Shown here: positions 12,238-61,478 of the stretch, piece by piece | Numbering within the stretch: position 1 is the first letter of the stretch | Layout: every line of letters starts with the position of its first letter | Program-made: the position numbers and the translations under genes | Notes under the pieces: generated by a model | The model's database searches: none | What the model was told of the DNA's origin: nothing | What the model saw: only the letters and a program-made list of their open reading frames with translations | Source: an uncultured Bifidobacteriaceae bacterium | GTDB taxonomy: Bacteria > Verrucomicrobiota > Verrucomicrobiia > Limisphaerales > UBA11358 | Length of the DNA: 64,000 bases | Direction: 5' to 3' | NCBI GenBank assembly: GCA_964655855.1 | Contig: CAZZPE010000007.1 | Location: 12,341 to 76,340 of the forward strand

Positions 12238-14474
12238 AAATTACCTCCATTCTTGCTGGCCGAATTTGTCATGAAGCGGGCGCTGCCGGTGACGGGATCA
12301 ATTTCAATGGGCAGGCCCGGCTTCATTCCCGGCCGCTTGTGGCCGATGGCCGTCAACCAGGCATCTTTCCAAACGGTCTGGTCTTTCTGGTCCTGGTGTA
12401 GAATGTCTTCTCCATTCGGATAGCGGGACATCAATTCGTCAATGCTTCCGGCCGTCGCGGCGTCTTTTGCACCCTGGTAAAGCAGGATTTGTTGCGCCAT
12501 GAGCCAATGGCCCAAGTCGCCCGGATGGATGCCGTCACGGGTCAAAGCAAAAGTCACGTTTGTCTCGCGCTCGGCGGCCAGATATTGCTTCATTGGAAAA
12601 TGCAAGTCCGCCACGTCCCATCCGTTGGTGCGTTGGGCAATGAGCCAAGCGGAGTAACGGTCCAGCACCTCGGCGTAGCCCGGATGTCCGCCTTTGGCCT
12701 CGTCAAAAACCGGCGGGGTGACGTGAATGATCCTGACGCCGGATTTTTCAACTTGTGAGTGCAGCCATTCGATTCCGTCCTGAAACAGCTTGAACCGGGT
12801 TTCGTCGAACGGCTGATAAATTCCGTCGTTCATGCCGTAACAGGCAAAAACCAAATCAGGTTTGGTCTTGTCGAGCACACGCGCCAGCCGCTCATGCAAA
12901 TCGGGACGCGGAAATTTTCCACCCGCGTGCCCCGGCTCGGAAAGGCCCGAAACGGTTTCGCTCGGCAGCCCAACGTTGATGAATTCCATCTTGCGATCCG
13001 GAAACCGCGCATGTTCATACGCCGCGACATCTTCCACATATTGACCCGCATAAGTGATGCTGTCGCCGAGGAACACAACCCGCTTGATATTCGGTGCAAA
13101 TAAACTGGTTTCAATGGGCTTCGGCACTTTCATCGCAGGGATTTTCAGTGTGTCGCCATCAACTGTGAGGGCGATGACTGTGTCCACCGGCTTGCGATCA
13201 TTTTCGGGAACAGAAATTTCCAGCCCGGCATCCGATTGTTTCACGTCAGCCTTGCCACCGTCGAGCACGCGACTGCTCAAAACTTTCAATGGCAGTGGCG
13301 GGAATTTCAGCGTCGCGCCGGCCCACTTCAAAATATGAAGGTAAATCGTTCTGTCGCGTCGCGTCGAACCGCCATAATCGCCGGGCTTGAACGGCCCGCC
13401 GCGCGTGCCGTAAATGCTTTCGCCGTTCGTCGCCAGCCATTGCCCCATTGCGAGCAACGGTTTGGCTTGTTCATCCGGAATGACGCCCAAAGAATCCGGG
13501 CCGACATCGAGCAAAAGGTTGCCGTCGCCGGTCGCGCAATTGACCAGCGTCCGCAAAGCCTCTTCGACTGACTTCACTTTGCCATCGGGCCGATACGACC
13601 AGCCGCCATGCTTCACGGTGATGAGGGTGATGCAAGATTCCCAAGGCCGCGTGTCATTGTAGCTGCCAAGCTTTTGTTCGGGCGTGTCGAAATCACCACG
13701 CGATTCCGGCGGATTGTTGGTGGCGCGCAGCGCGGCAAGACGGTTGTTGATGACGATTTGCGGCTGAAGCGATTTGATGAGCGTCCACGTTTCGGGAATC
13801 CTCCAGAACGCCAACGGATCGCCGCGACCGTAGCTGTCGAACCACAAAACATCCACCCGCCCGTAGTTCGTCAGCAACTCGCTCAACTGGCCATTCATGT
13901 AGTCAACATACTTTTCGTTATCGCCAATGCCGTAATCCGGCTCGTGCCAATCTCGCGGCGAATAATAAATACCGAAACGCAACCCTTCAGCGTGACAAGC
14001 CTCGGCCAATTCCTTCACCACGTCGCGATGAAACGGCGTGTGCATGATGGAATAATCCGTGAGCTTCGTGTCCCACATGCAAAAGCCGCCGTGATGCTTC
14101 GCGGTGAAGACCAGATATTTCATCCCGGCTGCCTTTGCGAGCCGCACCCACGCCTTCGCGTCAAAGTTGGTCGGATTGAAATTTTTGTAAAGATTGTCAT
14201 AAACCGGATCCGCAACGTAACCAGCCGGATCGCTTCCATTGTCCAATGGTCGCGAGCCATTGCGCGACCAACTGATTTCTGTGCCGGCGACACTCGACAT
14301 GTCCCAGTGGATGAACATCCCGAACCGCGCTTCGCGCCACCAAGCCGTGCGGGCGTCGCGTTGCGCCGGCGTTTCGGGAAAGTCATTCGTGGCTGCAAGA
14401 CTTGAAAATGACACAAGCACAAACGCCGCAGCGATAATCACAGTCCGTGTCATGGAAAACTTTTTTTGGTTCAT
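12234..14474 (-). CDS. GH29 alpha-L-fucosidase fused to a C-terminal SGNH/GDSL hydrolase domain
   Basis: GH29 motifs: WWREARFGMFIHWD, KYLVFTAKHHGGFCMWDT, GRVDVLWFD. SGNH blocks in the C-terminal ~290 aa: VVFLGDSITYAG, FACYGMNDG, DGIHPGDLGH. A signal peptide is present. Confidence 0.8.
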   Translation of the reverse strand: MNQKKFSMTRTVIIAAAFVLVSFSSLAATNDFPETPAQRDARTAWWREARFGMFIHWDMSSVAGTEISWSRNGSRPLDNGSDPAGYVADPVYDNLYKNFNPTNFDAKAWVRLAKAAGMKYLVFTAKHHGGFCMWDTKLTDYSIMHTPFHRDVVKELAEACHAEGLRFGIYYSPRDWHEPDYGIGDNEKYVDYMNGQLSELLTNYGRVDVLWFDSYGRGDPLAFWRIPETWTLIKSLQPQIVINNRLAALRATNNPPESRGDFDTPEQKLGSYNDTRPWESCITLITVKHGGWSYRPDGKVKSVEEALRTLVNCATGDGNLLLDVGPDSLGVIPDEQAKPLLAMGQWLATNGESIYGTRGGPFKPGDYGGSTRRDRTIYLHILKWAGATLKFPPLPLKVLSSRVLDGGKADVKQSDAGLEISVPENDRKPVDTVIALTVDGDTLKIPAMKVPKPIETSLFAPNIKRVVFLGDSITYAGQYVEDVAAYEHARFPDRKMEFINVGLPSETVSGLSEPGHAGGKFPRPDLHERLARVLDKTKPDLVFACYGMNDGIYQPFDETRFKLFQDGIEWLHSQVEKSGVRIIHVTPPVFDEAKGGHPGYAEVLDRYSAWLIAQRTNGWDVADLHFPMKQYLAAERETNVTFALTRDGIHPGDLGHWLMAQQILLYQGAKDAATAGSIDELMSRYPNGEDILHQDQKDQTVWKDAWLTAIGHKRPGMKPGLPIEIDPVTGSARFMTNSASKNGGNL

Positions 14475-16934: not shown

Positions 16935-17744
16935 TCACGCCGCTTGCCGCCGGATTGCGCCATCCGCCTCCATTCTGGCGACGAGCGGGAAAACGTCGCG
17001 TTGCAGGCAGAACGCCACGTCGTCGCGCAGTTCTGGAATTGCCAGCAGCCGCCGTGCGTTCGTGGAAGTCTGAAACGCGCCCGCCACATCCGCCTTTGCC
17101 TGCGCCCACGCGCGCCGGGCGATTTCTGCTGAATCAGATGTTTTGGCAGGGACGGCGCGCTGCGCCGTCCGGTTATCGCAGCGCGATGACCCTGCCTCCA
17201 GCAATTCGCACAGCGCGCCCGCCGCCAGCGCGTCCTCCAGTGCCGCGTCTTCGTGCGTGCCGGCGCAGACGAGCAGCACCTCCGCCGGCTGAAGCTTTCT
17301 GATGAATTCCGCCGTCGCGCCGAGATTCAAAAAGGAACCGGCCAGAACCGTCTTTGCGCCCGCGCAGGCGCGCAAGGCGCGGGTGCCGTTCGTCGTGGTG
17401 GAAACAATCGTCCGGCCGCGCACCATTTCGGGCGTGCATTCGCGCGGCGAATTGCCGAGGTCAAAATCAATTCCGCCGGTCTGCGCGGCACGGATTTTCA
17501 CGCCGCCCCGCTCGCCACCGAGTAAAATGGTTTCTGCTTTCCGCTTTCCGCTTTCCGCTTTCTTGAAAGCCAGCGCCTCGGCGATTTCGCTGACCGGAAC
17601 GACGGCCGTCGCGCCGTTGTGGAGCGCGGTCACAATCGTGCTCGTGGCGCGCAGCACGTCGAACACGACGCAGCACGTTTCGCGCAAATCGCGCCGGGCG
17701 AGCGCGGGCAGTTCCGCCGGCGTCAGGATGGTTTCAATTTTCAT
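16935..17744 (-). CDS. comB: 2-phosphosulfolactate phosphatase family protein
   Basis: ComB motifs: CVVFDVLRATSTIVTALHNGA, LLGGERGG, FDLGNSPRE. Contains an in-frame heptamer repeat at 17531-17564. Confidence 0.75.
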   Translation of the reverse strand: MKIETILTPAELPALARRDLRETCCVVFDVLRATSTIVTALHNGATAVVPVSEIAEALAFKKAESGKRKAETILLGGERGGVKIRAAQTGGIDFDLGNSPRECTPEMVRGRTIVSTTTNGTRALRACAGAKTVLAGSFLNLGATAEFIRKLQPAEVLLVCAGTHEDAALEDALAAGALCELLEAGSSRCDNRTAQRAVPAKTSDSAEIARRAWAQAKADVAGAFQTSTNARRLLAIPELRDDVAFCLQRDVFPLVARMEADGAIRRQAA

Positions 17745-17761
17745 TGTTTCTCACGCAAAAG

Positions 17762-18649: not shown

Positions 18650-20881
18650 TTATTTCAAGTTGTAGCACGCCCAAAGATGGACGCGGTGGAACACGCGGTC
18701 GCCGATTTTCACGTCCTGCTCGCCGAGGTCGGAGACGGAGGCAAATTCCTGCGCGATGCGCGGCGGCAGCAAGTCCGGCGCCGGCGCAATGCGGGCCACC
18801 GGCTCATGCGCCAGCCATTTCCAAACCCAGCCGCTTTCCAGTTTGTAAAGGCCGGCCTCGGAGACGAAAATGGCGCTCTGGCCCTGGCGCCGGGCGCGGT
18901 AGTTGTATTCCGACCAGAAATAAAACTGGTTCTCCGGCTCGTCCGAATCCGCGGAATAAACCAGCGGGCCGGATTTCAGCGCGTCGCGCGCCTGCGGAAT
19001 GTAAAATGAATACAGCCCGGTGATGCCGTAATGCCCGGCGATGATGAAGGCGGGCCGGCCTTCGGCGGCGAGTTTTTCGCGTGCATTTTCGACGAGCGTG
19101 GCGGCCACGTCCCACGCGCGCACGCGGCGCAGCGGGTCAATCTCACCGGGCAGCGGCTGTCCGGCAATTCGGGAGACGAGGTTGCTTTGATACATGATGG
19201 CGATGGCGAAAATGCCCAGCGCCACGCCGGCGGCGAAAAACGGCTTCGCGGCGCGGCGGCGCTCGTTCCAATAAACCACCATCAGGCAGAACATCGGCAG
19301 CACGGCGGGCGCAATCCAGTTCGGCAAAATGCGCGAGTGAAACGACCAGAGGAAATGGCCGATGAAAACCGGCGCGCCCATGCAGAAAAAATAGAGCCAA
19401 AGCGGGCGCTCGCGGCGGAATTTCCAGAAGCCGATCATCGCCCAGATTGCGCCGGCGAAGAAAACGGGATTGAGCAGCGCGAATTCCTGAAAGATGAAAT
19501 CCCAGAAGTAGCGCAGCGTCGGATGCCACTGGCCGTGGAGTCCGGCGTTGCCGGCGACGTGCGTGGCCGTGATCCAGCCGTGCCGCGAATTCCAGATGAC
19601 GACGGGCAGCGTGCAAATCAGGAAAACCGCCAGCGCGAGCCACGGGCCGGGCCTTCGCAACTGAATCCGCGCCGGCGGATGGAGCGCGAGGAAAATGCCG
19701 AAACAGACGATCAGGTAAAGCGCGTTGTATTTGCAAAGGAAGCCGAGTCCCATCGCCAGACCGACGATGAGCCAGTCGCGCGTTTTGCCGTCCGGCTGCA
19801 CCGCGCGCCAGCCCGCGACCAGCGCCCAGGTCCAGCAGAGGACCAGCGGCGGATCAATCGTCATCAAAATCGTGCCGATGCCGAGCAGCGGCGTGGCGGT
19901 GGCGGCGAGCAGCAGACAGAACGACGGGCGCGCGCCGATTTCGCGGGCCAGAAAACGGAGGAGCAGCAGGCTCGTGATGGCGGCGAACAGCGGCGAGAAA
20001 TAGCGGACGCCGAATTGCGTGTCGCCAAAAATCGAGGTGCCGGCGAACTGGATAAACGCGATGCCCGGCGGCTTGCTGTAATACGACAGCGCGGGATGCT
20101 TGGACCAAATCCACTGATACGCCTCGTCCTGGCTCAATTCGATGGCGCCGCTGGCGAGATAAATCCAGCGTCCGACAAGCATGGCGATGATTAAAATGGT
20201 GCCGAGGCGAAGCCACTCCAATTCGGAGTTGGGAGTCGGGAGTTGGGAGTTGGGGGATTCCGCATTCCGCACTCCGCGTTCCGCATTGACGAGCGATGGC
20301 AATTGCACGTGCCAGAGCGGGAACCATTTTTTTCCGATCCAGTTCCACGCGGCCTGCAATCCAATCACCCCCGCCGCCGCGTAGCCCGCGCCCAGAACCG
20401 CGCCGGCCAGAACGTCGCCCGGATAATGCACGCCGACATAGACGCGCGAGAAGGAGACGGCCAGCGCCATCGGCAGCATGAACCGCCAGCTTTTGGGATA
20501 AAACAGGAACGCGACCATCGTGGCGGAAAACCAGTTGGCGGCGTGCGCCGACGGCATGGAGCCGGAGGCGGTGCAGCCGAGACGCGCGATGGCATCCGTC
20601 AGCGCCATGCACGGCCGAGGCCGGGCGACGGCGTGTTTGATGATGTTGATGACGAGCGCGTTGCCGAGCAGGGAGACAAAGGCCATCGTCAGCGCGCACA
20701 GCCGGGCGCGGGTGCTGCAAAAAAGCGCCGCGACAAAACCGATGAAGACGGCGAGAACGAACCACCGCATTACATCGCCGCCACCGCTCAAAACCGGCAT
20801 GAGCCGGTCGAAGAGCGGGTTGCCCAATGACCGGTTCATGAAATGAAACAGACTTGTGTCGAGTGTTTGCAGCCAATGCAT
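18650..20881 (-). CDS. Fusion protein: N-terminal PAP2 phosphatase plus GT39/ArnT-like (GT-C) glycosyltransferase
   Basis: PAP2 motifs: KHAVARPRP, SMPSAHAANWF, SRVYVGVHYPGDVLAG. The rest is a polytopic PMT_2/ArnT-like region (DEAYQWIWSKHPALSYYSKPPG...). The linker is encoded by a heptamer repeat element at 20219-20286. Confidence 0.7.
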   Translation of the reverse strand: MHWLQTLDTSLFHFMNRSLGNPLFDRLMPVLSGGGDVMRWFVLAVFIGFVAALFCSTRARLCALTMAFVSLLGNALVINIIKHAVARPRPCMALTDAIARLGCTASGSMPSAHAANWFSATMVAFLFYPKSWRFMLPMALAVSFSRVYVGVHYPGDVLAGAVLGAGYAAAGVIGLQAAWNWIGKKWFPLWHVQLPSLVNAERGVRNAESPNSQLPTPNSELEWLRLGTILIIAMLVGRWIYLASGAIELSQDEAYQWIWSKHPALSYYSKPPGIAFIQFAGTSIFGDTQFGVRYFSPLFAAITSLLLLRFLAREIGARPSFCLLLAATATPLLGIGTILMTIDPPLVLCWTWALVAGWRAVQPDGKTRDWLIVGLAMGLGFLCKYNALYLIVCFGIFLALHPPARIQLRRPGPWLALAVFLICTLPVVIWNSRHGWITATHVAGNAGLHGQWHPTLRYFWDFIFQEFALLNPVFFAGAIWAMIGFWKFRRERPLWLYFFCMGAPVFIGHFLWSFHSRILPNWIAPAVLPMFCLMVVYWNERRRAAKPFFAAGVALGIFAIAIMYQSNLVSRIAGQPLPGEIDPLRRVRAWDVAATLVENAREKLAAEGRPAFIIAGHYGITGLYSFYIPQARDALKSGPLVYSADSDEPENQFYFWSEYNYRARRQGQSAIFVSEAGLYKLESGWVWKWLAHEPVARIAPAPDLLPPRIAQEFASVSDLGEQDVKIGDRVFHRVHLWACYNLK

Positions 20882-30911: not shown

Positions 30912-31306
30912 GGGGGGTTGCTGGATGTCGGAGCCGAACTCACGTCGGCTGCCACGAAATCATCAAAACCCGCCATTTTCAAGGTTCGGGCGCATTTCAG
31001 GCCGGGAAACGGGAGTTGCGGGATGTCGGAGCCGAACTCACGTCGGCTGCTACGAAATCATCAAAACCCGCCATTTTCGAGGTTTGGGGCGCATTTCAGG
31101 CCGGGAAATGGGAGTTGCTGGATGTCGGAGCCGAACTCACGTCGGCTGCCACGAAATCATCAAAACCCGCCATTTTCAAGGTTTGGGGCGCATTTCAGGC
31201 CGGGAAACGGGAGTTGCGGCTGTCGGAGCCGAACTCACGTCGGCTGCCACGAAATCATCAAAAACCCGCCATTTTCGAGGTTTGGGCGCATTTCAGGCCG
31301 GGAAAC
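30912..31306. repeat. Tandem array, 4 copies of a ~99-bp unit
   Basis: The core gatgtcggagccgaactcacgtcggctgc starts at 30924, 31022 and 31121; a 5'-variant copy (ctgtcggagcc...) sits at ~31219. Units are near-identical throughout, with no unique spacers. Each unit has a small hairpin (agccga...tcggct). Confidence 0.85.
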
Positions 31307-31309
31307 GGC

Positions 31310-31605
31310 ATTTCATCAATTTGGATTGCGTCCAAACAATGTCGGTTTGTCCTTTCACCCATTCGTTCTGCCTTTCCGGCGGGGCGTTTGACTCCTTCAT
31401 CAAATCGTCGTGTCCCGGCATCAAGTCGTTGTGCCTCCAACGGGCATCGCTTTGATTTTCCGTCAATTCGTTCAACCTTGGAACAACATCGTCTTGTCCC
31501 TGCATCAAATCGTTTTGCCTCTGAACAATATCGGTTTGTCCTTTCATCAAATCGTTTTGCCTTGAAACAATATCGTTTTGCCCCAACGCAAGACCGGATT
31601 GCCTG
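31310..31605. repeat. Array of ~13 degenerate 21-bp repeats (alternating 42-bp pattern) upstream of FN3 gene A
   Basis: Plus-strand units are of the type aacaatatcggtttgtccttt / catcaaatcgttttgcctctg. All six frames are open across it. Confidence 0.85.
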
Positions 31606-45277: not shown

Positions 45278-45693
45278 TTCCGATTGGCGATTGCGGATTG
45301 CGGATTTGTATGAACCCGGGCGAATTAAAACAGCGGACGAAAGATTTTGGCAAGCGCGTCATCAAGATGATTGAAGCCTTGCCCAAAAACACCACGACGA
45401 CCGTCATTGGCCGCCAATTGCTGCGAAGCGCGACTTCGGTTGGTGCGAATTACCGGGCGGTTTGCCGCGCCAAGTCGCGTGCCGATTTCGTTGCGAAGCC
45501 CGGAATCGTTGAGGAAGAATGCGACGAATCACTTTACTGGATTGAAATGCTGGTCGAAACAAATCAAATAAAGCCGGCGTTGGTTTCAAATTTGGCAAAA
45601 GAGGGCGAGGAAATACTTGCCATTGTCGTCACATCCGCTAAAACCGCACGAATGAAAAACAATCCGCAATCCGCAATCGCCAATCCGAAATGA
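45278..45693 (+). mobile_element. Inverted-repeat-flanked four-helix-bundle gene cassette inserted between argB and argD
   Basis: Left arm 45278-45306 (ttccgattggcgattgcggattgcggatt) and right arm 45660-45688 are inverted repeats sharing a 25-bp perfect core. The whole cassette fills the argB-argD spacer. Confidence 0.45.
45310..45693 (+). CDS. Four-helix-bundle protein (23S rRNA intervening-sequence protein family), short form
   Basis: IGRQLLRSATSVGANYRAVCRAKSRADF and ECDESLYWIEML motifs. The C-terminal tail NNPQSAIANPK is encoded by the right heptamer repeat. Its TGA overlaps the argD ATG (ATGA at 45690-45693). Confidence 0.75.
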   Translation: MNPGELKQRTKDFGKRVIKMIEALPKNTTTTVIGRQLLRSATSVGANYRAVCRAKSRADFVAKPGIVEEECDESLYWIEMLVETNQIKPALVSNLAKEGEEILAIVVTSAKTARMKNNPQSAIANPK

Positions 45694-47842: not shown

Positions 47843-48224
47843 TTTCCTTCAACTTTCGTTTGTGGTTGTGAGGCCCGGCAATGCCGGCGTGGTCTGGCAG
47901 CGGCGGCTTGAACCGTCGTTGTTTTCCAGCCATTGATCAGCGCGCATGCATCAGGCAACGCTGCGACCGTTTTGCCAGGGTCTCCTGTTCAATGTCACCA
48001 GGCCGTCTGGAGGAAACCATCCGGCTTCGCGCCGGCCCAGGGTGACACCACATCGTAAAGCAAACCGAATGCCAAGTTCTAATCCAGATTATTTATCAAT
48101 AGGTGTAATTCTTTATCTAAAACACAAAACGCGCATAACTTATTTATTGCCAACCACTTGCCGGTGCAAATTGTTTTGGGGCGCGGGATCGGGGTTGTTC
48201 CTGTCTACGGGAAAAAACCGGCTC

Positions 48225-48525
48225 TGGGACGGTAATATGTGCCTCTGATACGGGAATATCCGCCTCTGATATTACCGTCTTTGAGGCAGTTCTTGCCGTC
48301 TTGGACACGGATATTACCGTCCCGGCCAACGAGATTATCGCCTCCGTCTGTGATATTCCCGTCTCAATCATCGGGATTCCCGTCTCGGACTCCGATATTG
48401 CCGTCTCGGTCAACGAGATTATCATCTTCGTCTCTGATATTACCGTCCCGGTTATTGAGATTTCCGTCTTTGCCTTGGGAATTCCCGTCTCGGTCATCGA
48501 GATTCGCCTCTCAATGTCACAATTT
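48225..48525. repeat. Array of ~12-13 21-bp repeats upstream of FN3 gene B
   Basis: Plus-strand units: gatattaccgtcccggccaac / gagattatcgcctccgtctgt ... The conserved core is GAnATTnCCGTC, which is GACGGnAATnTC in the gene orientation. Confidence 0.85.
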
Positions 48526-49783: not shown

Positions 49784-51148
49784 ATGTGGCGGGACCGATG
49801 GGAGTGGCATCTGACGGATATGCACGGAGCAATTGGAATTTGTCAAGACGCGCGGAAGCACAAGGAGCGAGAGGATGGATTTTGCCCACGATGGATCGCG
49901 CTGGTGCCGAAATCTAACCAACATTCGTCCACGGTTAGTTGCCGAGTCCGCGCTCAATTAATTTCTTCGCTTAGGCTCATATTCATTGTTCAACTTCTCT
50001 TCTGTTCAACCTATCTTTTTGCCGCGGATGCTGTAAGCCTGAGCGGATATTTCACTGTTCTTACACAGGATGGACTTCATAAGCCTTTACCTCAACTATG
50101 CAGCAGCAATGAGTTTCAGGTTTTGGTTTGCCGTGATGGTCGCTGGGCCATTAATGTGCGTTCATTGGCAAAGGAAGACGATATCTCTTATTTAACATTT
50201 GACGGTAAGGATACGTATTCTGTTCATTACCAGAATTCAATTATGGGAATGACAAATGGTCAGCCTGACATTATTGCGACCGAGCCATTTACAAATCATA
50301 TCAATCGCGCGTCGATAAGCGCAGGCGGTTATCCATTTAACGTTTCAGACCCACAAGGCAGGGCACAAGTATTATGGCTTGCGTTTGATGCGGGCTCGTA
50401 TCTTCATGACCATCCACAGAAATCAATGCCTCTCCCATGGGCATATGTAAGATGGAACTTGGCCGCCTATGGATTCCGAATGGAGTATGAGTTAAGTGAG
50501 AATGCGCCCAACGCTATTCGAAGCTTGAAATTTATCAGGTCAACGGCGCTCGACCTGCCTGATAATGAGGAATTTGATCGTCCCGAACTTGACAATATCA
50601 ACAGGTCTGTATTCGAGAAGACGCTTGAACAACGCAAGAAGGAGTTGCCGGATGGTTTTGTAGAAGGGATTTTTCGGGGTTCCGAAAGCACGAACTATCA
50701 CAGCATGGAACTTCCTCTTGCATTTGCTTTCAAAGTTTTTAACCCGCATTATAAAAAGGATGATTTTTCTCGGAAATACGAAGGAATTGTTACTAATGTA
50801 GCGGAGGCAGATTCATTAAACTTCTCCCTTCCTCCAATCCAATCTGAACTTCGTGTTAAGGACGAACGCAGGAGATATAAAAGTGCCGCTAAGATAGAAA
50901 CTGAAGTGGATTATCGCTTAAAGCCGGCAGAGAATTGGCTATCGAAGGATGCGTTAGCTTCGCAACAGTTTGAAGCTGTTATACATGACCCGGTATCGGA
51001 CAGGAAACGATACCTTGGCAAACTGGACAAAGAGTTAATTGTAAAGATTGCCCTTCTAATTTCCACAGTTTTACCCATTATAATATTTATCATTATCCGC
51101 TTCAAACCCAAATTACCTCCATCAAAAAAATGGTATACAATACAATAG
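49784..51148 (+). CDS. Hypothetical membrane-anchored protein (no recognised family)
   Basis: Internal signal/anchor LISSLRLIFIVQLLFCSTYLFAADA and a C-terminal TM segment IALLISTVLPIIIFIIIRF. AT-rich codon usage. The start is uncertain (49784 or 49820). Confidence 0.5.
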   Translation: MWRDRWEWHLTDMHGAIGICQDARKHKEREDGFCPRWIALVPKSNQHSSTVSCRVRAQLISSLRLIFIVQLLFCSTYLFAADAVSLSGYFTVLTQDGLHKPLPQLCSSNEFQVLVCRDGRWAINVRSLAKEDDISYLTFDGKDTYSVHYQNSIMGMTNGQPDIIATEPFTNHINRASISAGGYPFNVSDPQGRAQVLWLAFDAGSYLHDHPQKSMPLPWAYVRWNLAAYGFRMEYELSENAPNAIRSLKFIRSTALDLPDNEEFDRPELDNINRSVFEKTLEQRKKELPDGFVEGIFRGSESTNYHSMELPLAFAFKVFNPHYKKDDFSRKYEGIVTNVAEADSLNFSLPPIQSELRVKDERRRYKSAAKIETEVDYRLKPAENWLSKDALASQQFEAVIHDPVSDRKRYLGKLDKELIVKIALLISTVLPIIIFIIIRFKPKLPPSKKWYTIQ

Positions 51149-51217
51149 CGTTAGAATAAGAATTTGAATGGAAGCAACAAAACAAACAAAACAAACAACA
51201 CAACAACAAAAAAGTAT

Positions 51218-51538
51218 ATGAAATTAAAAATGAAATGCGTAAAGACAGCGATTACCATTATGTGCGTTATTGCCGTGTCAGCGCCGTTGGCGCGGGCATT
51301 TACATATTACGATTGCCTTGCGGACTCGAGCACCGGCAGTCGTCCCTGCAAGCAGCCCACAGAAGGCAACCCCGATTGTTCTGGAAAAGCATGCGATTGG
51401 ATAAATGAATTCGACGATTGCCAAACCGTTAAGTTCGTATCGGTGTGCCTTTCGTGTGATACTGATATTACGACTGTAGTCATCGGGACGTGTCAAAAGG
51501 GTGGAGATGGTAGCTGTTATTGCTGGCCTGTAATGTAA
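51218..51538 (+). CDS. Small secreted cysteine-rich protein (10 Cys in an ~85-aa mature part)
   Basis: Start MKLKMKCVKTAITIMCVIAVSAPLARA (signal peptide). Mature sequence FTYYDC...C...C...C...C...C..C...C...CYCWPVM. Preceded by an A/C-rich leader. Confidence 0.55.
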   Translation: MKLKMKCVKTAITIMCVIAVSAPLARAFTYYDCLADSSTGSRPCKQPTEGNPDCSGKACDWINEFDDCQTVKFVSVCLSCDTDITTVVIGTCQKGGDGSCYCWPVM

Positions 51539-51714
51539 CTGTATTTGCAGCCAATAATTTCATGGTTGCTATCATAACGCTATTCTGCCGACAGGGCGGA
51601 TTAATAAGTTATTAAGGCCAACCTCGCTGTTATGCTGTCGTGAATCATAACAGCGAGAGTTGGTCTGTATTAAATTATTTCCAGGCAACACCCCAAAAGT
51701 TTTCGAGGGTGATT

Positions 51715-52200
51715 ATGAGGAAAATTATGCAATCAACACCTGTTCAATTTTTCCTGCGGTCAGCAGGTATATTGCTGTTGATTACAGCGTTCGCAAAGTT
51801 GGGAAGTAGTTTTGGCAGCGCTAAATACTTGGAGAGTTTAGATCCTTTGCTGTCAATTTCATTTCGACACCTTTTTAGGATTGTCGGAATGGTCGAGTTG
51901 GGCGTTGCGTTCATATGTTTTTTTGGAAAGCCGACAAGCATGAGAGCCTCTTTTGTGGCGTGGCTGGCTACAGCCTTTGCTCTGTATCGCTTTGGATTGT
52001 GGTGGATTGATTATCACAAACCATGTAGTTGTTTGGGAAATCTAACAGACGCTATCCATCTATCACCAGAAGCTGCAGACGCAGTTATGAAAATAATTTT
52101 GGCGTATCTGCTCATCGGCAGCTATGTAACCCTCTTCTGGCGCTGGCGGCAGCGCAGGCAATTGGCATCTGGCATTTCGGAGGTGGGAGCTAGTAGTTAG
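51715..52200 (+). CDS. MauE/DoxX-like redox-associated membrane protein (copy 1)
   Basis: Four hydrophobic segments and a HKPCSCLGN motif (MauE-like CxC). Paralog of 55502..56110. The family call is from a remembered pattern. Confidence 0.5.
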   Translation: MRKIMQSTPVQFFLRSAGILLLITAFAKLGSSFGSAKYLESLDPLLSISFRHLFRIVGMVELGVAFICFFGKPTSMRASFVAWLATAFALYRFGLWWIDYHKPCSCLGNLTDAIHLSPEAADAVMKIILAYLLIGSYVTLFWRWRQRRQLASGISEVGASS

Positions 52201-53724
52201 ATGCCGGTCTTTTGTGCTATGAATTGGCGTGGCGGCATCATTCAAATTGGCGGCCAGCGCGAGTCGGCTCTTGTTTCAATGAACTTATATTTGAGTCGGC
52301 TCAAGACGGGCGTGTTACGAACTGGAAGGTTTTTTCAGCTAATACAAGTTGCGTTGCCATTGGCAATCGTTGTCGTTTGTTTGTTTGGATATATGTTGGA
52401 TCGCTATTGTGGCATTTTTCGCGATTTGGAATCGGTGTTGCCATCGGTTCAATGGATGCTGTTGGTTTGCCTCGCTGCCTGGTGCGGCACGTTTCTTTTT
52501 CTGACGTTCAACCTGAATGATCTGTTACTGATTGCACTGCTTGTCATCGCGGTGGCCGCGTTTTTCATCGGCTATGCAGTATCTCAACCGGCGATGGATG
52601 CCATCATTCTTTTGGCGGGCGTGACGTTGGGAAAGGGGGTGCGCTTCGCTCTGATGGAAGATGGAAGATGGAAGATAAAAGATGGGGCGGAGAAAGAAGT
52701 CAGAAGTCAAAAGTCAGCAGTCAGATTATTTCTAATTGGGTTGGTTGCTTTGCTGGCGTTTGCGTCATGGTGGCATTTGGATGTGGCGCAACACTTTTAT
52801 CCCGCCGGTGTGCGCTGGACCGGGCTTTGGGATAATCCAAATATTTACGGAATGTTGATGGGAGCGGGGGTGATGCTCGCAATAGGGTTGATTGCAGCAA
52901 AGCAAAAAGCAGAAAGCGGAAAGCTGAAACTATTGCGCTCTTTGCGCTCTTTTGTGGCTATCAAATCCGCAATCCGCAATCCGCAATCCGCAATTCTCTT
53001 CATTGCGGTTTTGATGATGGGGGTGGGATTGTTGTTCAGTTACAGCCGGGGTGCATGGGTGGGGACGGCGGTTGGTTTGCTTTATCTGGCAAAGGTGCAT
53101 GGCAGGTTCAAATGGCGGTCTCTGAAAGTATTTCTGCTTTCTGCTTTCTGTTTTTTGGTTTTGATCTTTGGCGTTTGCTTTTTCTGGAATTCCACATCGG
53201 ACACAGGCCCGTGGTATCTCAAGCGCATGGATTTAAGCCGCGCATCGGCGCAACACCGGGTGTCCGCTTGGCGCGGCGCGGTTCAAATGATGCGGGATCA
53301 TCCGTTTGGCGTCGGCTGGAACAAGGCGGTTGAAACTTACGACAAGAATTATTCGCCGCCAGAAGACGGCGCGGCAGCGATTACCACGAATGATTATTTG
53401 ATGCTGGGAACGCAATTAGGGTTTCCGGGGTTGGTTTGTTTCGTCACTTACGTTGCGCTGTGCTTTCGCAAGTGCGGAGCGCTGAGTGCGGAGTGCGGAA
53501 TTAAAGAACTCCGAACTCCGAACTCCGAATTCCGAATTAAGACGGCTTGTCGCGCCGGTGCTTTAACCATGCTGGTGGCGTTTTGGTTTGATGGAGGATT
53601 GTTCAAGCTGGCAACGGCAGCGGTGTTCTGGATTTTGCTGGAATTGGGAACGGAAATTCAAAAACAGCCCGCCTTCACCTTGTTTCGGCGCGGTTGCGCC
53701 GAAGCTACAACGACAGCGGAATAG
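52201..53724 (+). CDS. O-antigen ligase / Wzy_C family polytopic membrane protein
   Basis: FSYSRGAWVGTAVGLLYL and HRVSAWRGAVQMMRDHPFGVGWN motifs. Its loops are encoded by tandem heptamer repeats. The start is uncertain. Confidence 0.7.
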   Translation: MPVFCAMNWRGGIIQIGGQRESALVSMNLYLSRLKTGVLRTGRFFQLIQVALPLAIVVVCLFGYMLDRYCGIFRDLESVLPSVQWMLLVCLAAWCGTFLFLTFNLNDLLLIALLVIAVAAFFIGYAVSQPAMDAIILLAGVTLGKGVRFALMEDGRWKIKDGAEKEVRSQKSAVRLFLIGLVALLAFASWWHLDVAQHFYPAGVRWTGLWDNPNIYGMLMGAGVMLAIGLIAAKQKAESGKLKLLRSLRSFVAIKSAIRNPQSAILFIAVLMMGVGLLFSYSRGAWVGTAVGLLYLAKVHGRFKWRSLKVFLLSAFCFLVLIFGVCFFWNSTSDTGPWYLKRMDLSRASAQHRVSAWRGAVQMMRDHPFGVGWNKAVETYDKNYSPPEDGAAAITTNDYLMLGTQLGFPGLVCFVTYVALCFRKCGALSAECGIKELRTPNSEFRIKTACRAGALTMLVAFWFDGGLFKLATAAVFWILLELGTEIQKQPAFTLFRRGCAEATTTAE

Positions 53725-53731
53725 CGGAGAA

Positions 53732-55489
53732 ATGAACATGAACACTGGACAAAAAATAGATCGTTACCTTCGGCTCTTTCCGGGCATTTGGATTGTTCTC
53801 AGTGTCATGGTTTTCCTGACGGCGCGCATCGTATGGTGCCGACCTCATTCGCCACACCATATCCAACAACTGGCAAAAGACTTCTCGTCAATTGATGCGT
53901 TTCGGGATCCTCCGGTTGTCAATCACGCCGGAACTTTGATTGGAATGGTTCACAATACCCCGCAGGGAATGGGCGTCTTTATTGCAAACATTCCAGCCAA
54001 AACGGAACAAACAATATGCGAGGCAAAAGAAGCGGATGTAGTTGGCGATCCCCATGTGTTCGGATGGTCGTCCGATGACAGCACTTTTGCTTATCGGTGG
54101 AACATTAACTTGCATTTTGTGAACACCAATGCAGTGGAATGTCCCGGTGCAATACCAACCCCTTATCTCAAGTCGTTCACATGGTTGTCGCCGGACAGTT
54201 GTGCCTACATTGACAGCAGCACAAACGCTGACAGTGATACACAGTTAGCAATTGCCAAACAGATTAATGGAAGATGGCAGGAAACCGCCTCGTGGCCGCT
54301 GACGGCAACCAATGGAACGCCGCGCTCGCTGCTCGCAATGGGGTCTAATGCGGTTGTCTGGTATGCAGGCAATTCAATCTGGCGAATGGACCTTTCAACG
54401 GGTGAAATCAAGCCCTTGTATTCAACTCCACCCAAATGCGCAATCAGCAGCCTTTCCTACTCGAAGGACACCGGACAATTCCTGTTTATTGAGACCACAA
54501 ATCGCGCCCGCACGGTCTCACTGTTCGCCTTTTCAAACGGCTCAAAGGTTTTGAAAAGAACCGGCAAAACACTTATAAGCGATGCCCAATGGATCAACAA
54601 AGGGAAAGGATACGCGTATTTGATTCCCGCCGGGGATAATGCATCACTGTTCATTCAGGCCGGGGATGGCCAAGTGAAAAGAACGTTTTTTTCCGATGGC
54701 CAAATCGCTGGAATATTTTGCGACGGGGAAAGTCCGAACGTGTATGCTCTCGCGTCCTATACAAATGAGGCGCCAAGCATTTGGCTATGCAATACGGCAT
54801 CCGGAGATGCCCAGTGCTTGCTTTCTCCGTGGGGCTTTGCGGCTTTCCCAGTTTGTTTTCAACCGGCATTGGTTGATTACGCTCCAATGCCTGACAAACA
54901 CGAGGAAAGATTCGTTCTGATTCCTCCCGCGAATTTTTCGCGTCATAAGAAATATCCGCTGGTCATCGGTATGCAAGGATATGATTGGATGAATGTTGCC
55001 CACGCAACCTATTCACAAGCAATTGCAAATCGTGGCGCTTTCGTGGCTTTGACCGGTTATCATTTTACGCGAGAGACGCCCGAAGCCCTGATAGCTTATA
55101 CCAACAATGTCCTGGCAGTCTATAATCAACTGGCGAAAAATCCAAATGTGGACACCAACCGGGTCTATCTTTTTGCGTTCAGTTTAAGCACCATCGTTGT
55201 TAACCATTTGATTGACGACTACCCGCGCCGATGGCGTGGTGTCATGCTATTTGGCCCAACGGCCGGCCTGCCGACACCAAAAGCGGGACGGTTCCCTCCC
55301 ATATTGGTAACCGCTGGCTCGGATGAAGAGTGGTTATGGAAACAATTCCCGGCTTATCAGGAAAAACTGGCACAGGCCGGAATCTCCATGGAATGGTTCG
55401 TTCATTCCGATGAGGGTCATATAGAGCGGTCTCAAAACACCATGTATCAGCGGACATTGTTGATGGGGAAAATGATTTTTGGCGATTGA
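53732..55489 (+). CDS. Membrane-anchored beta-propeller plus alpha/beta-hydrolase (S9 prolyl-oligopeptidase-like) protein
   Basis: ATG at 53732 after ggaga. N-terminal anchor GIWIVLSVMVFLTARIVW. C-terminus YPLVIGMQGY, LFAFSLST (nucleophile-elbow-like, not canonical GxSxG), GSDEEW, SDEGHI. Confidence 0.55.
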   Translation: MNMNTGQKIDRYLRLFPGIWIVLSVMVFLTARIVWCRPHSPHHIQQLAKDFSSIDAFRDPPVVNHAGTLIGMVHNTPQGMGVFIANIPAKTEQTICEAKEADVVGDPHVFGWSSDDSTFAYRWNINLHFVNTNAVECPGAIPTPYLKSFTWLSPDSCAYIDSSTNADSDTQLAIAKQINGRWQETASWPLTATNGTPRSLLAMGSNAVVWYAGNSIWRMDLSTGEIKPLYSTPPKCAISSLSYSKDTGQFLFIETTNRARTVSLFAFSNGSKVLKRTGKTLISDAQWINKGKGYAYLIPAGDNASLFIQAGDGQVKRTFFSDGQIAGIFCDGESPNVYALASYTNEAPSIWLCNTASGDAQCLLSPWGFAAFPVCFQPALVDYAPMPDKHEERFVLIPPANFSRHKKYPLVIGMQGYDWMNVAHATYSQAIANRGAFVALTGYHFTRETPEALIAYTNNVLAVYNQLAKNPNVDTNRVYLFAFSLSTIVVNHLIDDYPRRWRGVMLFGPTAGLPTPKAGRFPPILVTAGSDEEWLWKQFPAYQEKLAQAGISMEWFVHSDEGHIERSQNTMYQRTLLMGKMIFGD

Positions 55490-55501
55490 CACACCTCTAA
55501 C

Positions 55502-56110
55502 ATGACAACTACCCCCATTGCCATTCCGAAGGTCAAGGCCATAAACGGCGCGGCGCTATTCAGCATGTCGCGCGCCAGCTTGTTCGTGCTTTTAGCCGGG
55601 ACAATTCTCACATTTACCGGGATGGGTGCAATTTCCGGCGGTCTAGCCAAAGATCAACTGCTGGATTTGGCTGACCCTATTTTTAGCCTTTCGTTTCGAG
55701 GCCTGATGCTGGCTTTCGGAACAGCAGAAATGCTTGCCGCCTTTCTTTGCCTGTTCACGGACATGAGAACATTGAGTTTGGGGCTTGTCGCCTGGCTATC
55801 CGGCAATTTTATGGTTTATCGAATTGGATTGTGGAGCATGGGCTGGCACCATTCTTGTGGCTTCCTGATTGATCCGCTCGGGCTTTCATTGACAACCACC
55901 GATATCATCTTCAGTGTGTCTTCGACTTTTCTGCTTGTCGGCAGCGTTGCCACGCTTTGGCATGAGCGCCGGACGCTTCAAGCGGTAACATTTCTCAAAA
56001 TATCCTGCATTTCATGCGGCGGACACATTGAATTTCCCACCGCAGCCGTCGGGCAAAAAATCCAATGCCCGCACTGCGCAAAAAACATCACGCTGTTGAG
56101 TCCGGCTTGA
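55502..56110 (+). CDS. MauE/DoxX-like membrane protein (copy 2) with a C-terminal zinc ribbon
   Basis: Homologous to 51715..52200 (ADPIFSLSFRGL, YRIGLW, HHSCGFL), plus CISCGGHIEF...CPHCAKN. Confidence 0.5.
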   Translation: MTTTPIAIPKVKAINGAALFSMSRASLFVLLAGTILTFTGMGAISGGLAKDQLLDLADPIFSLSFRGLMLAFGTAEMLAAFLCLFTDMRTLSLGLVAWLSGNFMVYRIGLWSMGWHHSCGFLIDPLGLSLTTTDIIFSVSSTFLLVGSVATLWHERRTLQAVTFLKISCISCGGHIEFPTAAVGQKIQCPHCAKNITLLSPA

Positions 56111-60363: not shown

Positions 60364-60491
60364 AGTAAAAAAATGGAACGCCAAGAGTAACCAGCCGGCG
60401 GGAACAAGGCAAATGGAATTTCAGGTTCAGAGTTCCGCGTTCAAGGTTCACCGTTGAACCGCAAAAACTTTGAACCTTGAGCCTTGAACCG

Positions 60492-61478
60492 TCATTTCAG
60501 CCACTTTGCCACGTCCGCCGCCGCGTAGGTGATCAAAATGTCCGCGCCCGCGCGCCGCATCGCCAGCAAGCTTTCCAGCGTCACCGCGCGCTCGTCAATC
60601 CAGCCCCGCGCCGCCGCCGCCTTGATCATCGCGTGCTCGCCGCTCACCGCGTAGGCCGCCGTCGGATAACCAAACTCCGTTTTCACGCGATGAATCAAAT
60701 CCAGATACGCCAGCGCTGGCTTGACCATCACGATGTCCGCGCCTTCCTGGATGTCGAGGGCGACTTCGCGCAATGCCTCGTTCGCGTTCGCCGCGTCCAT
60801 CTGGTAACTGCGCCGGTCGCCGAACTTCGGCGCGGATTCGGCGGCCTCGCGGAACGGCCCGTAAAACGCCGACGCAAACTTCGCCGCGTAACTCATGATC
60901 GGCGTGTCAATGAAACCGCCCTTGTCCAGCGCTGCGCGGATCGCCGCCACCCGGCCGTCCATCATGTCGCTCGGCGCAATGATGTCCGCGCCCGCCTCGG
61001 CATGGCTCGCCGCCGTTTGCGCGAGCAGCTTCAACGATGGGTCGTTCAAAATTTTCCCGCTGTGAACAATTCCGCAATGGCCGTGCTCCATGTATTCGCA
61101 CAGGCACACGTCGGTGACGACCAGCAGCGACGGCAGTTCCTTTTTCAACAAGCGCACCGTCTGCTGGACAATGCCGTTCCTGACACAGGCACCGGAGGCC
61201 TTCGCGTCCTTGGTGTCCGGAATGCCAAAGAGCAGGACGGCGGGAACGCCGAGCGCATGGGCGCGCGCGGCCTCGCGCAGGACTTCATCCGGCGAAAGCT
61301 GGAAGACACCGGGCATGGCGTCAATTTCGCGGCGCAATTTTTTGCCGGCGCGGGCGAACAGCGGCAGGACGAGCTGCTCCACGCTCAAGCGCGTTTCGCA
61401 GACGAGCCGCCGCAACGCGGGCGACTGACGCAGCCGGCGCGGGCGGGACACGGGAAATCCGGGCAAATTCATGGACAC
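60492..61478 (-). CDS. hemB: Porphobilinogen synthase (delta-aminolevulinate dehydratase)
   Basis: RPRRLR, DVCLCEYMEHGHCG, PSDMMDGRV, VKPALAYLD and YAVSGEHAM motifs. Confidence 0.92.
   Translation of the reverse strand: MSMNLPGFPVSRPRRLRQSPALRRLVCETRLSVEQLVLPLFARAGKKLRREIDAMPGVFQLSPDEVLREAARAHALGVPAVLLFGIPDTKDAKASGACVRNGIVQQTVRLLKKELPSLLVVTDVCLCEYMEHGHCGIVHSGKILNDPSLKLLAQTAASHAEAGADIIAPSDMMDGRVAAIRAALDKGGFIDTPIMSYAAKFASAFYGPFREAAESAPKFGDRRSYQMDAANANEALREVALDIQEGADIVMVKPALAYLDLIHRVKTEFGYPTAAYAVSGEHAMIKAAAARGWIDERAVTLESLLAMRRAGADILITYAAADVAKWLK

Follow-up and report, generated by a model that had tools for sequence, protein, structure and literature searches.

A dispersed heptamer-array element that lies between and within genes of Limisphaerales in no single reading frame

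INTRODUCTION

How does the same short nucleotide repeat come to lie inside two unrelated membrane protein genes? The question was raised by a 64,000-nucleotide (nt) stretch of DNA, here called the window, from an uncultured bacterium (deposited as a Bifidobacteriaceae bacterium, but of the GTDB lineage Verrucomicrobiota, Limisphaerales; assembly GCA_964655855.1, contig CAZZPE010000007.1, positions 12,341 to 76,340 of the forward strand). A preliminary description, made from the letters of the window and a list of its open reading frames (ORFs), had pointed to a composite of two blocks of tandem heptamers that occurs in both genes. It took the composite to be either a repeat element whose insertion is tolerated in only one frame or a recruited linker or loop peptide, with an unusual tie to membrane glycosyltransferases in either case. 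We found that the two copies belong to an element family that is large and lineage-wide in Limisphaerales (Verrucomicrobiota) and that is mostly intergenic. Our reading, to which we give a probability of about 0.7, is that it is a dispersed heptamer-array hairpin element, neutral as to reading frame and tolerated within ORFs as a spacer.

RESULTS

Anatomy of the two copies

Both host ORFs are present as first described, one of 743 amino acids (aa) on the minus strand (18650..20881; host 1) and one of 507 aa on the plus strand (52201..53724; host 2), and the letters quoted for the two repeats read as given. The coordinates of copy 2 (53471-53538) also held; copy 1 occupies 20220-20284, and the limits given for it were 1 to 2 nt too wide. 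Read in the sense of its host gene, copy 1 is AATGCGG AACGCGG AGTGCGG AATGCGG, AATCCCCC, AACTCCC AACTCCC GACTCCC AACTCCG AATTGGA, and copy 2 is AGTGCGG AGCGCTG AGTGCGG AGTGCGG, AATTAAAG, AACTCCG AACTCCG AACTCCG AATTCCG AATTAAG. Both thus consist of four units (GCGGART), an 8-nt spacer, and five units (AACTCCS), and in the best colinear alignment, which is ungapped, 54/71 positions are identical. The common two-block architecture is therefore even closer than had been noted, and this identity and layout make the two stretches homologous copies of one element.

In copy 1, the 5′ arm in gene sense (20257..20284, minus strand; four units GCGGAAC/GCGGAGT/GCGGAAT, which appear on the plus strand as ATTCCGC ATTCCGC ACTCCGC GTTCCGC) encodes NAERGVRNAE, and the 3′ arm (20220..20254, minus strand; five units AACTCCC/AACTCCG/GACTCCC, on the plus strand AATTCGG AGTTGGG AGTCGGG AGTTGGG AGTTGGG) encodes ...PNSQLPTPNSELE. 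The arms of copy 2 lie at 53471..53499 and 53506..53538 on the plus strand. Tandem Repeats Finder (TRF) reported 4.1 to 4.4 head-to-tail heptamer copies per arm at both loci. When one mismatch was allowed, GGAGTTSGGAGTT occurred six times in the window, always within these two elements, where shuffled sequences gave an expectation of 0.13.

The preliminary description did not remark on how close each block is to the reverse complement of the other (TCGGAGT versus GCGGAGT). The arms of copy 2 are complementary at 6/7 positions and form a ladder hairpin, which folds clearly better than shuffled sequences (z = −4.2 on the minus strand and −2.6 on the plus strand). The arms of copy 1 show weak mutual complementarity, and shuffled sequences fold as well as this copy does (z = −1.4 and −1.2 on the two strands); its palindromic structure is degenerate. 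The spacer between the arms is 2 to 8 nt and encloses no ORF in either copy. A search of the whole window against Rfam at gathering thresholds gave no match to an rRNA or any other known RNA family, and on this ground a known RNA family was rejected as the identity of the element.

Reading frame and orientation

The element has the same orientation relative to both host genes, as had been stated, but the frame differs: when the copies are aligned colinearly at their best, codon phase is off by one base. To bring them into a common frame, one copy has to be shifted by a full 7-nt unit, and identity then falls to 43/71. The encoded peptides are indeed alike. This likeness is an automatic outcome of the period and no evidence of a shared frame, because 7 is coprime to 3 and every frame of an array therefore yields the same cyclic 7-aa repeat. 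AGTGCGG gives SAECGVR and AACTCCG gives NSELRTP in all three frames, and both units are free of stop codons on both strands.

The same result came from metagenome contigs. Twenty intragenic copies were found among the matches listed, 15 in sense and 5 in antisense orientation, and the codon phases of the sense copies were divided 6/4/5. Insertion that is tolerated in only one frame does not fit these data, since the window copies differ in frame and the metagenome copies occupy all phases and both orientations. The finding that the preliminary description had itself named as telling against a single frame was thus made twice, in the window alignment and in the metagenome census, and the two together exclude same-frame insertion.

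Abundance, location, and hosts

Among periods 4 to 12, only period 7 was enriched in the window: it had 8 runs, and each of the others had 0 to 2. We extended the count to a 1.43-Mb sample made up of the window and 80 orthologous loci from species-representative metagenome-assembled genomes (MAGs). Arrays of at least three copies numbered 171 for period 7, the most frequent tandem repeat of this sample, compared with 62, 47, 18, and 34 for periods 3, 6, 8, and 9, respectively. Copy number of the period-7 arrays had a mode at ∼4.5 units (∼31 nt), whereas the numbers for other periods simply decayed from two copies. With coding status assigned by a codon-likelihood gene caller trained on these loci, 99 of the 171 arrays were in genes (60 of them in the linker of host 1 and its orthologs), 51 were intergenic, and 21 were ambiguous. 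The intergenic arrays lay between tandem (35), convergent (8), or divergent (4) genes. Adjacent pairs of arrays were complementary at 6.1/7 positions between genes versus 4.1/7, which is about chance, inside genes.

The two-block composite was sought in metagenome contigs with the pattern GCGGANTGCGGANT-N(1-31)-CCSAACTCCSAACT and was present in at least 118 contigs. After deduplication, the matches listed gave 71 distinct copies, of which 40 were intergenic, 20 were inside ORFs, and 11 were ambiguous. The composite folds with z scores of about −3 to −4 on both strands. Its intergenic copies are often located 7 to 90 nt past a stop codon, and we detected no polarity in them relative to the direction of the neighboring genes or of transcription. 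This census of location, frame, and orientation, which the preliminary description had called for, bears out its view of a dispersed nucleotide repeat element.

The intragenic copies fell into eight different host families by Pfam, and the hosts are mostly soluble housekeeping proteins. They include a histidine kinase (with the element within HATPase_c), a MoCF_biosynth protein, HypF (two copies), two P-type ATPases, BipA/TypA, UvrA (two copies), and a RadA-like ATPase in which a block of 26 residues sits within the LDRVLG/GGLVPGS motif. This motif of RadA is otherwise contiguous. With hosts so unrelated and so often soluble, and with 40/71 of the listed copies intergenic, the element has no special tie to the loops of membrane glycosyltransferases. 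Our literature search found no paper on heptanucleotide repeats in Verrucomicrobia, and a tree-of-life survey of short tandem repeats mentions neither heptamers nor Verrucomicrobia.

The linker of the PAP2-GT39 gene

Host 1 encodes a PAP2 phosphatase (aa 66 to 172) fused to a PMT_2/GT39 glycosyltransferase of the GT-C type (aa 269 to 430), and the element makes up the linker between the two domains, at about aa 199 to 221. By analogy with characterized relatives, in which the PAP2 motifs are periplasmic, as is the DE-containing loop that comes first after the following transmembrane (TM) helix, the linker would lie in the cytoplasm. A database look-up found no record of the exact window protein; the names carried by homologs point to Verrucomicrobiota, order Limisphaerales, as the lineage of the window.

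In more than 100 orthologs the linker is hypervariable and yet heptamer-like in its peptide (AECGVRS, NSELRTP, SEIGNRK, ESRIQNP, STLNPQP, SRITHHA, and KSKVQSP are examples). At the DNA level, period 7 was dominant in the linkers of 43/47 orthologs, down to ∼49% identity, with differing units. Single-base changes link these units into a network (AATGCGG, AATGCAG, AATCCAG, and AGTGCGG; AACTCCG, AAATCCG, and AAATCGG). Within clusters of proteins at least 90% identical, the entire linker is swapped for an unrelated heptamer pair, and there are apparent recombinants. Members that are 98% identical have equal copy numbers, and the more distant members of a cluster show replacement of the whole cassette and no gain or loss of single units. 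An example comes from the window and L082, a close relative in synteny with it: their flanks are about 90 to 95% identical in DNA right up to the cassette boundaries, and the cassette is (GCGGAAN)4-CCCCC-(AACTCCC)4 in the window and (GTTCAAA)4-spacer-(AAATCGG)5 in L082. Such wholesale swaps between relatives with highly similar flanks exclude gradual drift in place as the sole mode of change. A hairpin is not a conserved feature of the linker either, since the arms are noncomplementary in most orthologs and the window copy folds like its shuffles.

Orientation, unlike frame, is biased. The sense reading was more hydrophilic than the antisense reading in 47/52 of the linker arrays (mean Kyte-Doolittle values of −1.42 versus +0.23) and in 18/28 of the arrays in other genes.

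Metagenome assemblies evidently break at these repeats, with artefactual split genes as the result. One contig (L081; Ga0494738_015827) starts exactly within the PAP2-GT39 heptamer linker, which takes up its positions 1-64, so that the gene caller reports a protein with GT39 only. The P0246 contig starts inside the repeat.

Four array sites in the O-antigen-ligase-like gene

Both hosts had been called GT-C genes. This is right for host 1; host 2 is a membrane protein of the Wzy_C/O-antigen-ligase family (domain at aa 268 to 415), and it carries four heptamer-array sites. Site 1 (52653..52725, plus strand) consists of (GATGGAA)4.7 and (AGAAGTC)4.4, encodes EDGRWKIKDGAEKEVRSQKSAV, lies in the TM4-TM5 connection, and is hypervariable among homologs. 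Site 2 (52894..52994, plus strand), in the TM6-TM7 connection, consists of (GCAGAAA)5, a 34-nt spacer, and (AATCCGC)4.4 and encodes KQKAESGKLK...SAIRNPQSAI. Site 3 (53131..53154, plus strand) repeats the site-2 unit in reverse complement, as (TTTCTGC)3.4, and is found only in a subset of the homologs. Site 4 is copy 2 of the element and lies in the TM10-TM11 connection.

Sites 2 and 3 serve as an internal control for orientation. GCAGAAA reads as AESRKQK in a loop at 52894, and its complement TTTCTGC reads as FLLSAFC at 53131; the latter, the one hydrophobic reading, is situated in a TM helix. An AlphaFold model of host 2 has 12 helices of TM length. The three array-coded segments in the TM4-5, TM6-7, and TM10-11 connections, which include the stretches of lowest confidence, are on the same (N-terminal) side in the model, opposite the large TM9-10 loop, and are therefore probably cytoplasmic. 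Across homologs these three loop sites behave like the host-1 linker, in that the site is kept and the sequence is replaced. Relatives that are only 60 to 69% identical nevertheless retain a nearly identical site-4 peptide.

The proposal of a loop or linker peptide thus agrees with the element's place in both genes, the interdomain linker of host 1 and the TM10-TM11 connection of host 2. To call that peptide recruited overstates its role, since unrelated heptamer-coded peptides replace it in relatives with 90% identity or more. The peptide is no conserved motif and probably serves as a tolerated flexible spacer.

Two further features of this region were noted. Several host-2 homologs (P0125, P0128, P0131, P0140, and others) have an N-terminal fusion to a prepilin-type cleavage/methylation domain (PF07963) and are 700 to 850 aa long. 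The part of the window around host 2 (50001-56000) has a GC content of 43 to 50% versus about 58 to 62% elsewhere; it contains the O-antigen-ligase-like gene, a gene for a MauE-like membrane protein, and a small ORF (51164-51538) for a Cys-rich, secreted-looking protein, and it might be an island for envelope glycans that is variable or was gained by horizontal transfer.

Inverted heptamer arrays around PF05635 genes

A third kind of location was seen between the argB-like and argD-like genes of the window. Here a PF05635 gene (45310..45693, plus strand; 23S rRNA intervening sequence [IVS] protein/four-helix-bundle, Avd-like) is bracketed by a 5′ array of the GGATTGC type (45283..45306, plus strand) and a 3′ array, (CAATCCG)4.6 (45660..45690, plus strand), that is its near-exact reverse complement. 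The last ∼12 codons of the gene are the 3′ array, and its stop codon overlaps the ATG of the argD-like gene. The cassette (45283-45693) is thus an ORF enclosed by stem-forming terminal inverted repeats, unlike the two flagged copies, which have no ORF.

Inverted period-7 arms of 18 to 32 nt bracketed 6/6 PF05635 homologs in 2.1 Mb and 8/8 further loci. By origin, bracketing (with arms of about 18 to 34 nt) was found at 14/14 loci in Verrucomicrobiota-type contigs and at 5/8 cross-phylum plasmid loci; the five, which come from a collection of annotated plasmids and have significant arms, are from Planktothrix, Gloeocapsa, Nostoc (two), and Chlorohelix. (The bracketed loci are the window and L103, L121, L122, L123, L145, L201-L206, L210, L211-L213, L215, and L217.) The gene occupies different loci in different lineages (argB/argD, DUF58/BatA, and upstream of dprA are examples), always co-oriented between tandem genes, and its stop codon overlaps the next start in 4/5 contexts examined. 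Array-coded tails such as NPQSAIANPK end 117/120 database homologs of the PF05635 gene. The cassettes sit between protein-coding genes, not in a 23S rRNA helix, and Rfam placed no rRNA in the window.

The layout is that of a known system. In the 23S rRNA IVS of Coxiella, the S23p ORF lies within a 28-bp inverted-repeat stem that is cleaved by RNase III, and the 5′ region of this IVS contains tandem heptamers whose copy number varies among strains (PMC4990558). PF05635 is also related to Avd, the accessory protein of diversity-generating retroelements (PMC10053308). Within an incomplete coverage of the literature, we found no paper on the bracket architecture outside rRNA.

On plasmids from cyanobacteria and Chloroflexota, defense-type operons were seen to enclose the PF05635 gene (L211-L213 and L218; NZ_LR882964.1, NC_019759.1, NZ_CP128402.1, and NZ_CP112878.1). 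With the four-helix-bundle gene written as 4HB, the contexts were DrmD-4HB-MmeI, DUF1156-4HB-Swt1 HEPN (found in this order in two phyla), and a position just upstream of cas1.

DISCUSSION

A probable frame-neutral element tolerated within genes

The dispersed, frame-neutral hairpin element that we favor has the following properties. Each copy consists of two adjacent arrays of ∼4 to 5 heptamers, of which the second approximates the first in reverse complement, with a total length of about 60 to 80 nt. Most copies occupy transcribed intergenic DNA, where pairing of the arms is good; a stop codon often lies shortly before them, or tandem genes flank them. A minority lie inside ORFs and would persist there for an arithmetic reason: as 7 and 3 share no factor, all frames of an array give one and the same 7-residue repeat. 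Intragenic arrays are free of stop codons by necessity in the frame read, and an insertion or expansion totaling a multiple of three would then merely add a short low-complexity peptide. Selection filters the site (interdomain linkers, cytoplasmic loops, and surface loops) and the orientation, in which the A-rich strand reads as polar residues, and leaves the frame unfiltered. The cassette turns over quickly between relatives. The bracketed PF05635 genes have the layout of the 23S rRNA IVS, an ORF in the loop of a stem. We infer that copies spread by insertion or ectopic conversion instead of arising in place, and that the array-coded peptide is nearly neutral; by analogy with the rRNA IVS, the intergenic and bracketing stems may act at the RNA level through processing of the RNase III type.

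Several points weigh against this reading. No transposase or reverse transcriptase was seen adjoining the arrays, and no insertion mechanism was found. The one Y1 transposase gene nearby, in L082 (780-1500), encodes a 150-aa Y1_Tnp protein (IS200/IS605-type, RAYT-like) and lies between the repetitive extragenic palindromic (REP)-like palindromes CCCAGCCATAAATGGCTGGG and GTCCCTGACGGGAC, not between heptamers. Those palindromes are a separate repeat family in the same lineage, and an association of the arrays with RAYT and REP was rejected because CCCAGCCATAAATGGCTGGG-type palindromes flank this gene. Distant orthologs of host 1 have non-repeat linkers of similar length, so the linker arrays could have arisen in place, and no clean empty site was seen for this linker among orthologs. 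The gene caller was home-made and trained on the loci of this lineage, so that it may have misassigned some copies as "intergenic" or "edge" where metagenome contigs belong to other lineages. The AlphaFold model of host 2, of which we used the helix boundaries alone, has a confidence (pLDDT 55.6, pTM 0.30) too low for a fold search. Processing of these stems by RNase III would follow by analogy, and the link between the solo hairpins and the PF05635 cassettes is one of shared architecture and unit families only.

The rival that deserves the most attention is plain slippage: microsatellites that arise and change in place at unconstrained sites, through some intrinsic preference for 7 nt, with no moving element and with similar copies produced by convergence. 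Heptanucleotide simple sequence repeats (SSRs) are the most over-represented class of long SSR in many bacteria, polymerase slippage has been proposed as the explanation, and they vary in length and sequence between close relatives at matching intergenic sites (PMC4692102, PMC4679880). Slippage alone could explain the periodicity and the one-base steps that link the units of the host-1 linker, and the 100% periodicity of many intragenic arrays implies ongoing homogenization. We still consider it unlikely, for a modal size of ∼4.5 units instead of a decaying distribution argues against free slippage, and convergence would have to account for a layout of 4 units, 8 nt, and 5 units that is 54/71 identical in two unrelated genes and for a composite that recurs in unrelated contexts in at least 118 contigs. 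Also against slippage are the occurrence of arms as complementary pairs between genes (6.1/7) and as inverted brackets around PF05635 genes, the exchange of an entire cassette between genomes with flanks that match at about 93%, and the 26-residue block inside the otherwise contiguous LDRVLG-GGLVPGS motif of RadA.

Two further proposals would give the arrays a function in their hosts. A peptide or RNA signal kept by selection where the two domains meet, acting through the length or charge of the linker, through a translational pause between PAP2 and GT39, or as an RNase III site that uncouples them, would suit the period-7 linker at the matching site in 43/47 orthologs (down to ∼49% identity), the strong bias to the hydrophilic orientation (47/52), and the near-identical site-4 peptide in host-2 relatives of only 60 to 69% identity; the rRNA-IVS stem of equal design is, moreover, an RNase III substrate (PMC4990558). 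This proposal seems to us improbable, since the peptide is unconserved and unrelated repeats take its place in close relatives, distant orthologs do with ordinary non-repeat linkers, the complementarity of intragenic arms is at chance (4.1/7, with z of −1.4 for the host-1 copy), and identical DNA is also found between genes and in antisense. Least probable of all is a phase-variation (contingency) switch in which gain or loss of one unit toggles the downstream GT39 domain or the O-antigen ligase. A unit of 7 does mean that one copy more or fewer changes the frame, both hosts work on envelope glycans and thus belong to the classic class of phase-variable genes, and the Coxiella IVS heptamers vary in copy number among strains (PMC4990558). 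However, among about 90 members of the 90%-identity clusters none was truncated or frameshifted at the arrays, and the short proteins that we considered as phase-variant alleles were contig-end fragments. The arrays are also short (4 to 5 units) and of fixed modal size, and the element is mostly intergenic or in housekeeping genes that switching would harm (those for UvrA, the RadA-like protein, BipA, HypF, and the P-type ATPases).

A bolder extension of the dispersed-element reading, which we regard as doubtful, concerns the PF05635 cassettes. The solo heptamer hairpins might be gene-less derivatives of a widespread cassette, a PF05635 gene in an inverted heptamer-array stem, that is kin to the 23S rRNA IVS and has colonized operon spacers and, as miniatures, coding sequences. 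The PF05635 protein would recognize, process, or propagate such stems, and heptamers like those of the cyanobacterial short tandemly repeated repetitive (STRR) sequences would be largely its footprints. The reach named for this cassette covers Verrucomicrobiota, Cyanobacteriota, and Chloroflexota, and the labels of the sources also include Acidobacteriota and Phycisphaerae MAGs.

Comparison with known repeats

The element resembles several described systems and differs from each in defined ways. The Rickettsia palindromic elements (RPEs) are likewise dispersed short palindromic repeats that lie in frame in many unrelated, often housekeeping genes, where they add a short peptide at tolerated sites, and they too have intergenic copies (PMC10969869). 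RPEs are about 150 bp long and have a conserved non-tandem sequence, with a conserved peptide for each family. The element described here is 60 to 80 nt long, is built of two heptamer arrays whose unit varies by locus and species, encodes its peptide independently of frame, is found in both orientations, and occurs in Verrucomicrobiota, not Rickettsia.

With the heptanucleotide SSRs (the cyanobacterial STRR, GGGAATC of Xanthomonas, GGGGAYT of Nostoc, and TAACTGA of Beggiatoaceae) it shares tandem 7-nt units, over-representation, a mainly intergenic location, an occasional arrangement in inverted pairs, and variability between close relatives at conserved positions (PMC4692102, PMC4679880). The published descriptions of those SSRs are of intergenic arrays that vary in length, and intragenic repeats have been noted to favor multiples of three; the modal size of ∼4.5 units, the two-arm hairpin, the frequent in-frame residence in ORFs, and the PF05635 bracketing set the present element apart. 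The window cassette and 13 other loci match the S23p/PF05635 IVS of Coxiella and Leptospira, in which an ORF lies in the loop of an inverted-repeat stem of ∼28 to 32 bp. That IVS is inside 23S rRNA helices, whereas the cassettes here are between protein genes of operons and the flagged copies are ORF-less and inside coding sequence. Like REPs, BIMEs, and REPINs, the element is an abundant, short, imperfect palindrome found mostly in transcribed intergenic DNA near gene ends; unlike REP/REPIN sequences, which are non-tandem and rarely in frame inside genes, it has no RAYT association here.

The case shows how a nucleotide repeat can be frame-neutral. Such an element can settle even in essential genes, where the linkers and loops that it provides are ready-made and disordered, a route to variation in protein length other than repeats of codon units. 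It also accounts for hypervariable low-complexity segments across Limisphaerales proteomes and for the breaks in metagenome assemblies at these places. The PF05635 bracketing in several phyla may be the more valuable lead, for it ties together the excess of heptamer SSRs, rRNA intervening sequences, and a very large, Avd-related orphan family. Were the cassette origin true, bacterial heptamer repeats that have long been unexplained, STRR and relatives, would be largely footprints of a PF05635 system.

Other repeats in the window

Two more heptamer features lie outside the genes discussed above. An in-frame array, (GCGGAAA)4.6 (17531..17562, minus strand), in a 2-phosphosulfolactate phosphatase gene (16937-17750) encodes KKAESGKRKAE at aa 63 to 74. 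In L082 the same unit is present at the matching site (13490-13521), although the PAP2-GT39 linker cassette of that relative differs. An intergenic solo hairpin (60427..60492, unstranded) with arms of the (GTTCAAG) and (CTTGAAC) types lies between two tandem minus-strand genes and represents the intergenic members of this class in the window.

Longer repeats also occur. At 30913-31308 a 99-nt unit is repeated in tandem to give four copies (94% matches), and repeats with periods of 21, 42, and 84 nt come next at 31404-31584; the gene caller placed no gene in either stretch. Degenerate 21-nt repeats (nine copies, with nested periods of 42 and 84 nt) are found at 48206-48504, a stretch of lower GC content with no confident gene and with stop codons in all translations inspected.

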